A stretch of DNA of 64,000 nucleotides from Klebsiella phage RCIP0102: the sequence record OR532896.1; one strand, 5' to 3'. A model generated the notes under the pieces. It did no database searches. It worked only from the letters and a program-made list of their open reading frames with translations, and had not been told where the DNA came from. Made by a program: the position numbers and the translations under genes. Of the stretch, positions 47,180-47,264 are shown piece by piece; the first letter of the stretch is position 1; every line of letters starts with the position of its first letter.

Positions 47180-47264
47180 TGGCGGGCCGTGCAGGTATCG
47201 AACCTGCCTAGTCATTTCTGACACGGATTAACAGTCCGTCGCTTACCCTCTCAGCCAACGACCC
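47180..47264 (-). tRNA. Type II (long variable arm, Ser-like D-arm, discriminator G) tRNA whose anticodon reads GUU (Asn) as transcribed
   Basis: Acceptor GGGTCGT/ACGGCCC, D-arm GGCTGAGAGGGTAAGC, anticodon stem-loop ACGGA CTGTTAA TCCGT, variable arm GTCAGAAATGAC, T-arm GCAGG TTCGATA CCTGC, CCA encoded. Confidence 0.55.

Follow-up and report, generated by a model that had tools for sequence, protein, structure and literature searches.

According to the standard view, a long variable arm is found in bacteria only in the tRNAs for leucine, serine, tyrosine and selenocysteine (Sec), where it is held to be a mark of identity. How should we then read a phage tRNA gene that combines such an arm with the asparagine anticodon GUU? 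This question is raised by positions 47180-47264, on the minus strand, of the window analysed here, which is the whole 64,000-nucleotide stretch of DNA from Klebsiella phage RCIP0102 (sequence record OR532896.1). A first-pass annotation of this DNA had proposed a serine-type tRNA that could insert serine at AAC and AAU codons, with a tRNA-Asn on an unusual class II body as the alternative. Our analysis favours the latter: with a probability of about 0.72, as judged from sequence comparisons, the gene, hereafter called AsnL for long-armed tRNA-Asn(GUU), would encode a functional elongator tRNA-Asn(GUU) of the phage with class II architecture, and it is very unlikely to be a mistranslating serine tRNA.

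ARAGORN calls at 47180-47264 (minus strand) a tRNA of 85 nucleotides (nt) with the anticodon gtt at gene position 33, and the Rfam tRNA model scores the same interval with 49.2 bits (gathering score 29, E=1.4e-8). By minimum free energy (-32.7 kcal/mol; z=-2.49 relative to shuffles) the gene folds into a cloverleaf to which a fifth hairpin is added. The parts of the gene, all on the minus strand, are:

47180-47264, minus strand: AsnL, the complete gene including the encoded CCA (ARAGORN, Rfam, fold, and 100% identity in many phage isolates)
47258-47264, minus strand: 5' strand of the acceptor stem, GGGUCGU (positions 1-7), pairing with 47184-47190 in 7 of 7 pairs
47241-47255, minus strand: D arm, GCU-GAGAGGGUA-AGC, with a stem of 3 base pairs (bp), G13 opposite A22, and G18 and G19 present (from the fold)
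47223-47239, minus strand: anticodon arm, ACGGA-CUGUUAA-UCCGU (from the sequence)
47232-47230, minus strand: anticodon GUU, that is, G34, U35 and U36 (from the sequence)
47208-47222, minus strand: variable region, GUCAGAAAUGACUAG, 15 nt (from the fold and a parse of the sequence)
47191-47207, minus strand: T arm, GCAGG-UUCGAUA-CCUGC (fold and covariation)
47184-47190, minus strand: 3' strand of the acceptor stem, ACGGCCC (from the sequence)
47183, minus strand: discriminator G73 (from the sequence)
47180-47182, minus strand: encoded CCA (from the sequence)

The variable region consists of a 4-bp hairpin, GUCA-GAAA-UGAC, with a GAAA loop, followed by three unpaired 3' bases, UAG. The acceptor and T stems show the canonical 7/5 arrangement, and the signatures of the T and D loops are canonical too. 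All seven acceptor pairs, which include G1:C72, G2:C71 and a G:C at 3:70, covary among 22 aligned relatives, and the D stem contains a C11:G24 pair. A class I body is defined by a variable loop of 4-5 nt and a D stem of 4 bp, and AsnL departs from it in both respects, with its 15-nt region and 3-bp D stem. Every element that the first-pass annotation had listed (long variable arm, 3-bp D stem, CTGTTAA loop with GUU, discriminator G and encoded CCA) is present in the gene, and its judgement that the combination is unusual holds.

A pointer to the amino acid comes from the identity elements. In Escherichia coli, asparagine identity resides in G34, U35 and U36 together with G73, a set that confers the same identity when moved into tRNA-Lys (PMC9976931, citing Li, Pelka and Schulman 1993). 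This full set for asparaginyl-tRNA synthetase (AsnRS), GUU plus G73, is found in AsnL. Moreover, its anticodon arm equals the GCGGA-CUGUUAA-UCCGU arm of E. coli asnT, which was retrieved by coordinates for comparison together with serV, at 16 of 17 positions, only position 27 being different. AsnL has the GUU anticodon, the CUGUUAA loop and G73 in common with bacterial tRNA-Asn and with class I tRNA-Asn from phages T5 and T2; with the two phage tRNAs it also shares G1:C72, G2:C71 and a position within phage tRNA clusters. Since ordinary T2 and T5 tRNA-Asn carry these two pairs as well as G73, the GG start of the AsnL acceptor does not discriminate between serine and asparagine. The differences lie in the body, where class I tRNA-Asn has a 5-nt variable loop and a 4-bp D stem, whereas AsnL has 15 nt with a 4-bp hairpin and a 3-bp stem with G13/A22; outside the anticodon arm there is little sequence similarity between them (7-9 bits for AsnL on a class I Asn profile). 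The closest functional relative of AsnL is nevertheless ordinary tRNA-Asn. Following this reading, AsnL would be co-transcribed and processed with the neighbouring tRNAs, charged with asparagine by the host AsnRS through GUU and G73, and used to decode AAU and AAC, the extra arm presumably leaving its amino acid identity unchanged. In this line, other long-armed tRNAs of phages carry at the acceptor end the marks proper to their own anticodons (U73 in Cys and Gly, A1:U72 with G73 in Trp, A73 in Lys and Ile); the hairpin accompanies many identities in phage tRNAs, and therefore defines none.

The distribution of the gene among phages is informative in the same sense. The 85 nt of AsnL match 548 GenBank phage records, 148 of them at 99% identity or more and with many independent isolates at 100%, and where the matching records carry an annotation it is tRNA-Asn, once tRNA-Asx. 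The phages belong to the Straboviridae (Jiaodavirus and relatives) and the Demerecviridae (Epseptimavirus and phages of Proteus and Providencia), and about half of the matches come from T5-like phages of Salmonella, E. coli, Proteus and Providencia, which align over the full length at 75-81% identity and have the acceptor stem GGGUCGU/ACGGCCC in common with AsnL. All homologues, down to 75% identity, have GUU. A BLAST search with the same 85 nt against 5,426 E. coli genomes gave no match. The trivial explanation, an error at position 35 of a tRNA-Ser(GCU) sequence or a decaying copy of such a gene, is refuted by these data: although GCU and GUU are only one C-to-T change apart, the identical 85 nt occur in many independent isolates, the anticodon is constant among the homologues, and it recurs in about 100 distinct environmental sequences with covarying stems. 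A normal tRNA-Ser(GCU) disguised by a misread T, which the first-pass annotation had considered, is excluded by the 148 nearly identical records. Nor is the gene a recent C35U mutant, since GUU is fixed in hundreds of genomes and the T5-like relatives keep their tRNA-Ser(GCU).

Comparison of sister phages reveals where the long form sits. T5 has an ordinary 78-nt class I tRNA-Asn between tRNA-Cys and tRNA-Asp, plus a separate class II tRNA-Ser(GCU). In the Epseptimavirus phages EH3 and TrudiGerster (Bas27) the long form follows directly after tRNA-Cys and there is no class I tRNA-Asn, while a separate 94-nt tRNA-Ser is retained at the position of the T5 tRNA-Ser(GCU). In T2, a T-even phage related to that of the window, an ordinary tRNA-Asn of 75 nt adjoins tRNA-Tyr. 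From the T5/Epseptimavirus and T2/window-phage comparisons it follows that, among sister genera of two families, either a short or a long tRNA(GUU) occupies the same slot. The tRNA-Asn alternative of the first-pass annotation is thus the one that the evidence favours. The literature on the homing endonuclease SegB was set aside as bearing on AsnL, the T2 tRNA-Asn being an ordinary 75-nt gene.

Within the window, AsnL is part of a dense group of tRNA genes:

42920-47440, minus strand: cluster of 16 tRNA genes around AsnL (ARAGORN)

Their order is Tyr, Lys, AsnL, Asp, Met, Gln, His, Ser-UGA, Ile, Trp, Gly, Pro, Met, Arg-UCU, Leu-UAA and Thr-UGU, AsnL being the third gene, with 5 nt between it and the tRNA-Lys gene upstream. 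Klebsiella phage Mineola (Straboviridae, Tevenvirinae, Jiaodavirus) has an annotated cluster of the same 16 tRNAs, and the region matches myoviruses of Raoultella and Klebsiella at 99.8% identity. A scan for promoters and terminators returned chance level only. Among the 16 tRNAs called by ARAGORN, AsnL is the sole one with GUU and the sole reader of AAY codons. The window has a GC content of 39.4% and uses asparagine codons at 51.5 per 1000 (5.15%), AAU alone accounting for 31.9 per 1000. An asparagine tRNA fits the bias of the cluster towards A/U-rich codons; an inserter of serine at 5% of positions would not.

Is AsnL an isolated curiosity of these phages? A wider scan was done with a pattern consisting of the anticodon arm GGACTGTTAATCC followed by GGTTCRA 15-35 nt further on. 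It matched at least 120 viral contigs, but only 48 stretches when applied to one genome per species in 185,579 species. ARAGORN found in the matched viral loci 117 GUU tRNAs of 81-91 nt, about 100 of them distinct and with very different acceptor stems. True long GUU tRNAs in cellular genomes lay mostly inside dense arrays of 10-35 tRNA genes, as in Micromonospora and several metagenome-assembled genomes. With the pattern relaxed to accept short as well as long gaps, 15 of the 120 viral matches listed (12.5%) were long-armed, whereas the long form is almost absent from cellular genomes. As far as can be told from these scans, the long-armed tRNA(GUU) is a large, diverse and strongly virus-enriched family. 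As a separate observation, the chromosomes of Micromonospora and Verrucosispora (loci L130, L132, L137 and L167) contain arrays of 23-36 tRNA genes in about 6 kb; their tRNA(GUU) measures 89-90 nt, with a variable stem of 4-6 bp and a U1:A72 acceptor pair, and most of the tRNA-Leu genes in these arrays are class I-shaped.

The extra arm behaves in this family as a conserved structural element. In an alignment of 22 diverse long tRNA(GUU) members (alignment A4), 98% of the cells form standard pairs, against 35-45% paired in slid controls, and all four pairs of the variable arm show compensatory changes. The covariation score of 0.78 compares with 0.18 in shuffles, and none of 500 shuffles reached it. 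All 22 sequences have an A at the middle position of the 3' linker, and the loop of the arm is usually a GNRA tetraloop, GAAA in 39 of 105 long tRNA(GUU). Moreover, position 15 and the final base of the variable region change together (G15 with C, A15 with U), as expected for the 15-48 tertiary pair. Such a pattern of substitutions argues that the extra arm of the long tRNA(GUU) is a real and selected helix.

The possibility of a serine-type body was approached by comparing features within the viral loci, with 90 tRNA-Ser, 105 long tRNA(GUU) and 23 class I tRNA-Asn:

Pair 1:72: G:C in 93% of tRNA-Ser; U:A in 63% and G:C in 30% of long tRNA(GUU); U:A in 48% of class I tRNA-Asn
Pair 2:71: G:C in 97% of tRNA-Ser; C:G in 43% and G:C in 42% of long tRNA(GUU); C:G in 70% of class I tRNA-Asn
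Pair 3:70: A:U in 91% of tRNA-Ser; mixed in long tRNA(GUU); C:G in 52% of class I tRNA-Asn
G73: 59% of tRNA-Ser; 92% of long tRNA(GUU); 87% of class I tRNA-Asn
Variable stem: 4-7 bp in tRNA-Ser; 3-4 bp in long tRNA(GUU); none in class I tRNA-Asn
Unpaired bases at the 3' foot of the arm: 0-1 in 81% of tRNA-Ser; 3-4 in 70% of long tRNA(GUU); not applicable to class I tRNA-Asn

In these features the long tRNA(GUU) family sides with tRNA-Asn rather than with tRNA-Ser. The arm of the long tRNA(GUU) has the geometry of phage tRNA-Tyr, 67% of which also show 3-4 unpaired 3' bases, and the AsnL arm of the window, with its 4 bp and three unpaired 3' bases, falls off the geometry typical of tRNA-Ser, where the stem mostly has 5-7 bp and 0-1 bases stay unpaired at its 3' foot. 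In addition, the C2:G71 pair frequent in the family is listed as an antideterminant against E. coli seryl-tRNA synthetase (SerRS) (PMC9976931). The combination of a Ser-type acceptor (G1:C72, G2:C71), a Ser-like arm and G73 occurs in a single one of the 105 long tRNA(GUU), a descriptive count whose 2x2 association is not significant by a rough hand estimate. As to the 3-bp D stem, taken by the first-pass annotation as serine-type, it is a general feature of class II tRNAs: the arrangement with G13/A22 is present in 64% of phage tRNA-Leu, 21% of tRNA-Ser and 44% of long tRNA(GUU). This last figure, from the full set, led us to withdraw a 4-bp class I-like D stem as a trait of the family, which had first been seen in 22 sequences.

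Isotype models gave a similar picture. With a Ser covariance model (A3/R1) built from 100 phage tRNA-Ser, the tRNAs of the window score 60.2 bits for Ser(UGA), 52.2 for Tyr, 47.3 for Arg, 46.9 for AsnL, 46.1 for Leu and 46.0 for Lys, which places AsnL no better than class I Arg and Lys tRNAs of its own cluster. For profile hidden Markov models (HMMs) the whole anticodon arm was masked, because masking of the triplet only was biased, both Asn sets having been gathered by the same anticodon-arm pattern. These masked HMMs were right for 92-98% of held-out Ser, Tyr, Leu and class I Asn tRNAs. At about 11 bits, they divided the long tRNA(GUU) family among Ser (33%), class I Asn (30%), Tyr (27%) and Leu (10%), and they gave the AsnL of the window 0.2-5.5 bits for Ser, 4-10 for Tyr, 7-9 for class I Asn and 0 for Leu. 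A serine chimera, which the first-pass annotation expected such models to flag, did not emerge from either the covariance or the masked profile scores. A nearest-neighbour comparison of AsnL with 1,365 other phage tRNAs found no clear parent isotype; the gene may go back to a tRNA-Ser (through C35U) or to a tRNA-Tyr (through A36U and A73G). On account of the family features, the isotype models and the lack of a parent isotype by nearest neighbour, the body of AsnL, as read from its sequence, is not of the serine type.

A direct comparison with the known class II tRNAs makes the point clearer. With tRNA-Ser, exemplified by E. coli serV(GCU) and the T5 tRNA-Ser3(GCU), AsnL shares the long arm with its GNRA cap, the 3-bp D stem, G73, G1:C72 and G2:C71, but it lacks a serine anticodon (NGA or GCU), has G:C at 3:70 instead of A:U or U:A, and carries a shorter arm with three unpaired 3' bases rather than 0-1. 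With bacterial tRNA-Tyr(GUA) it shares the arm geometry (about 3-4 bp and 3-4 unpaired 3' bases), G34 and U35, whereas that tRNA has A73 and the anticodon GUA and AsnL has G73 and U36. In shape, its closest relatives are bacterial tRNA-Tyr for the geometry of the arm and tRNA-Ser or tRNA-Leu for the D arm. G73 is listed as an antideterminant for both tyrosyl- (TyrRS) and leucyl-tRNA synthetase (LeuRS) (PMC9976931).

Could AsnL nevertheless be a missense tRNA, charged with serine by an enzyme that ignores the anticodon and inserting it at AAC and AAU? SerRS does not read the anticodon (PMC9976931), AsnL has the long arm, G73, G1:C72, G2:C71 and C11:G24, and class II tRNAs with a mismatch between anticodon and charging do occur in nematodes (PMC3333845) and bacterial metagenomes (PMC7609411). 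We consider this explanation very unlikely, however, as neither the Ser covariance model nor the Ser profile favours it, the arm is Tyr-like, the G:C at 3:70 contrasts with the A:U of 91% of phage tRNA-Ser, and the family shows U1:A72 in 63% and the SerRS antideterminant C2:G71 in 43% of its members. A complete AsnRS identity set is present, serine at the 5% of phage codons that specify asparagine would damage most proteins, and AsnL replaces the normal tRNA-Asn of sister phages with a separate tRNA-Ser(GCU) kept alongside. The serine insertion proposed by the first-pass annotation finds against it the Ser models, the arm geometry and the conservation of the gene. The precedents for mismatch are instructive here: the nev-tRNAs of nematodes (PMC3333845) and the allo-tRNAs of bacteria (PMC5389517, PMC7609411) resemble AsnL in joining a class II shape to an anticodon of the class I type, but they are charged through their body (Leu for the former, Ser or Ala for the latter) and do not carry the identity elements for the synthetase of their anticodon; AsnL is the reverse. 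Measured against the marks of a body-charged tRNA, it has the full Asn set, no A73 for LeuRS and only part of the Ser set. Moreover, allo-tRNAs have 8/4 or 9/3 acceptor/T stems, unlike the 7/5 of AsnL.

Some points weigh against a plain tRNA-Asn. The counts and statistics of the family are conditional on the anticodon arm GGACTGTTAATCC, which was fixed by the search pattern. The G1:C72, G2:C71, C11:G24 and G73 of AsnL, together with its long arm, amount to a partial SerRS identity set, and the variable stem of the phage's own tRNA-Ser(UGA) is likewise only 4 bp. AsnRS belongs to the class IIb synthetases, and enzymes of the aspartyl-tRNA synthetase (AspRS) type approach their tRNA from the side of the variable loop, as in the yeast AspRS-tRNA complex; by analogy, a long arm might clash with AsnRS. 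From the partial SerRS set and the 4-bp stem of tRNA-Ser(UGA), some serylation of the window copy may occur, which leads to a dual identity: a tRNA charged mainly with asparagine, of which a meaningful minority would be charged by SerRS, producing a low-level Asn-to-Ser ambiguity during infection. The parts of the AsnRS set (GUU, G73) and of the SerRS set (arm, G73, G1:C72, G2:C71) that coexist in the enterobacterial lineage would be in keeping with it, as would the equally short arm of tRNA-Ser(UGA). A Tyr-type arm with G73 makes a poor SerRS substrate. A tRNA-Tyr was reportedly converted into tRNA-Ser by Himeno in 1990. Arm geometry and profiles speak against serine here as they do for a purely serine-accepting tRNA, G1:C72 and G2:C71 are a habit of coliphage tRNA-Asn (T2 and T5, class I), and there is no sign of selection for ambiguity; dual identity is in our opinion unlikely, and an ordinary asparagine identity remains the preferred one.

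What, then, could the extra arm be for? A suggestive context is provided by the PARIS defence system, whose nuclease AriB has E. coli tRNA-Asn(GUU) as a secondary target, cut between positions 40 and 41, and contacts U16-U17 of the D loop in an AlphaFold 3 model (PMC12409363); the predicted footprint extends from positions 40/41 of the anticodon stem to positions 16/17 of the D loop. Three T5 tRNAs, for Lys, Thr and Asn, are altered by substitutions at the AriB cut site or close to it (PMC12409363), and the anticodon stems of ordinary T2 and T5 tRNA-Asn have diverged. AsnL is, like these T5 tRNAs, the phage copy of a species cleaved by the nuclease, in this case Asn(GUU). The T5 tRNAs escape through anticodon-stem substitutions at or near the cut, whereas AsnL keeps the host stem including UAAUC|C and differs by A16 (not U16) and by the extra arm, which emerges by position 43. 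This pattern would fit an arm that offers another way of evading tRNA nucleases, which is our leading guess as to its role, although a speculative one. In a more general form, phages may repeatedly have added a GNRA-capped hairpin to class I tRNAs, most often to tRNA-Asn but also to those for Cys, Trp, Thr(UGU), Lys(UUU), Gly and Glu, as an adaptive steric shield or self-mark against nucleases such as AriB, an idea that we advance as tentative and rather doubtful. A phage tRNA shielded in this way could keep the host-like anticodon arm that is read by AsnRS and by modification enzymes. If true, this would be a second evasion route beside mutation of the cleavage site, and a fourth natural class II isotype, chargeable by a class IIb synthetase. 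Results obtained with PARIS on phage Bas34 were set aside for AsnL, as Bas34 is a Tequintavirus, and T5, the Tequintavirus that we checked, has a class I tRNA-Asn.

The same context admits a different use, in which the RNA would be poorly charged or not charged at all and would serve without decoding, for instance as a decoy for host tRNA nucleases or tRNA-binding factors. Over-expressed phage tRNAs have been considered as possible competitive inhibitors of AriB (PMC12409363), the sequence of the host cleavage site is kept in AsnL, and the cluster contains tRNA-like RNAs of non-functional appearance. Nonetheless, a perfect cloverleaf, canonical T and D loops, the 15-48 covariation, the encoded CCA, a fixed GUU with G73, and the position of AsnL as the one Asn decoder among sets of tRNAs otherwise serving A/U-rich codons point to selection for decoding, and a pure decoy therefore seems highly improbable.

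We found no description of a long-armed tRNA-Asn in the literature searched, a 2020 review on non-canonical tRNAs included. Annotation of the gene is routine, but its architecture, spread and restriction to viruses appear to have gone unremarked. To the isotypes with a long arm a further one, Asn, would have to be added, in hundreds of sequenced phages and many uncultured ones. If AsnRS does charge AsnL, a class IIb synthetase tolerates a class II body, which would bear on the rules of tRNA identity and on the design of orthogonal tRNAs. Given that tRNA-Asn is the target of at least one defence nuclease, the arm also offers a testable hypothesis on the conflict between phage and host. In practical terms, annotation tools that infer the isotype from the shape of the body could mislabel long-armed tRNA-Asn genes as chimeras or suppressors.

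Several other features of the cluster deserve a record:

42836-42913, minus strand: 78-nt tRNA-like RNA with a terminal CCA, 7 nt downstream of tRNA-Thr
43286-43360, minus strand: tRNA remnant just upstream of tRNA-Arg, with an intact T arm, GCAGG-UUCGAGU-CCUGC
45970-46126, minus strand: tRNA-Gly and tRNA-Pro, only 5 nt apart
46950-47179, minus strand: 230-nt spacer between AsnL and tRNA-Asp

The acceptor, D and T arms of the 78-nt RNA look sound and its anticodon loop is oversized; it received no ARAGORN call and no Rfam match up to E=1, and the tRNA-Ser model gives it 22.7 bits. A degenerate tRNA, or a stable tRNA-like RNA such as those known from T4 and T5, may be encoded here. The remnant upstream of tRNA-Arg lacks a full cloverleaf and reaches 19 bits on the tRNA-Ser model. 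The spacer folds at -70.4 kcal/mol (z=-3.39 against shuffled sequence) and has only open reading frames of 50 amino acids or fewer, and it may be a small structured RNA inside the tRNA operon. In Mineola, a gene for a SegB-like homing endonuclease lies between tRNA-Gly and tRNA-Pro (L279:6814-7665); as these two tRNA genes are 5 nt apart in the window, the phage studied here does not have this mobile gene.

Short GNRA-capped variable hairpins were also seen in phage tRNAs for Cys (loci L010, L048, L049 and L050), Trp (L020, L053 and L120), Thr(UGU) (L018, L050 and L057), Lys(UUU) (L129 and L141), Glu, Gly and Ile(GAU), and in each case the discriminator and the first base pair fit the isotype of the anticodon. 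In the viral loci, none of roughly 100 tRNA-Arg or 49 tRNA-His had such a hairpin. The reverse anomaly exists as well: 59 distinct phage tRNA-Leu of 74-79 nt (e.g., L002:9848-9924 and L003:9948-10024) have a variable loop of 4-7 nt, mostly 5 nt, and hence a class I shape, with A73 in 53 of the 59. Finally, 9 of 13 tRNA(UAU) genes are of a long kind, found in viral loci L021, L024, L025, L027, L028 and L052, which measures 91-96 nt and shows A73 and a variable region of 21-26 nt with a recurring AGAUUnG-like motif.

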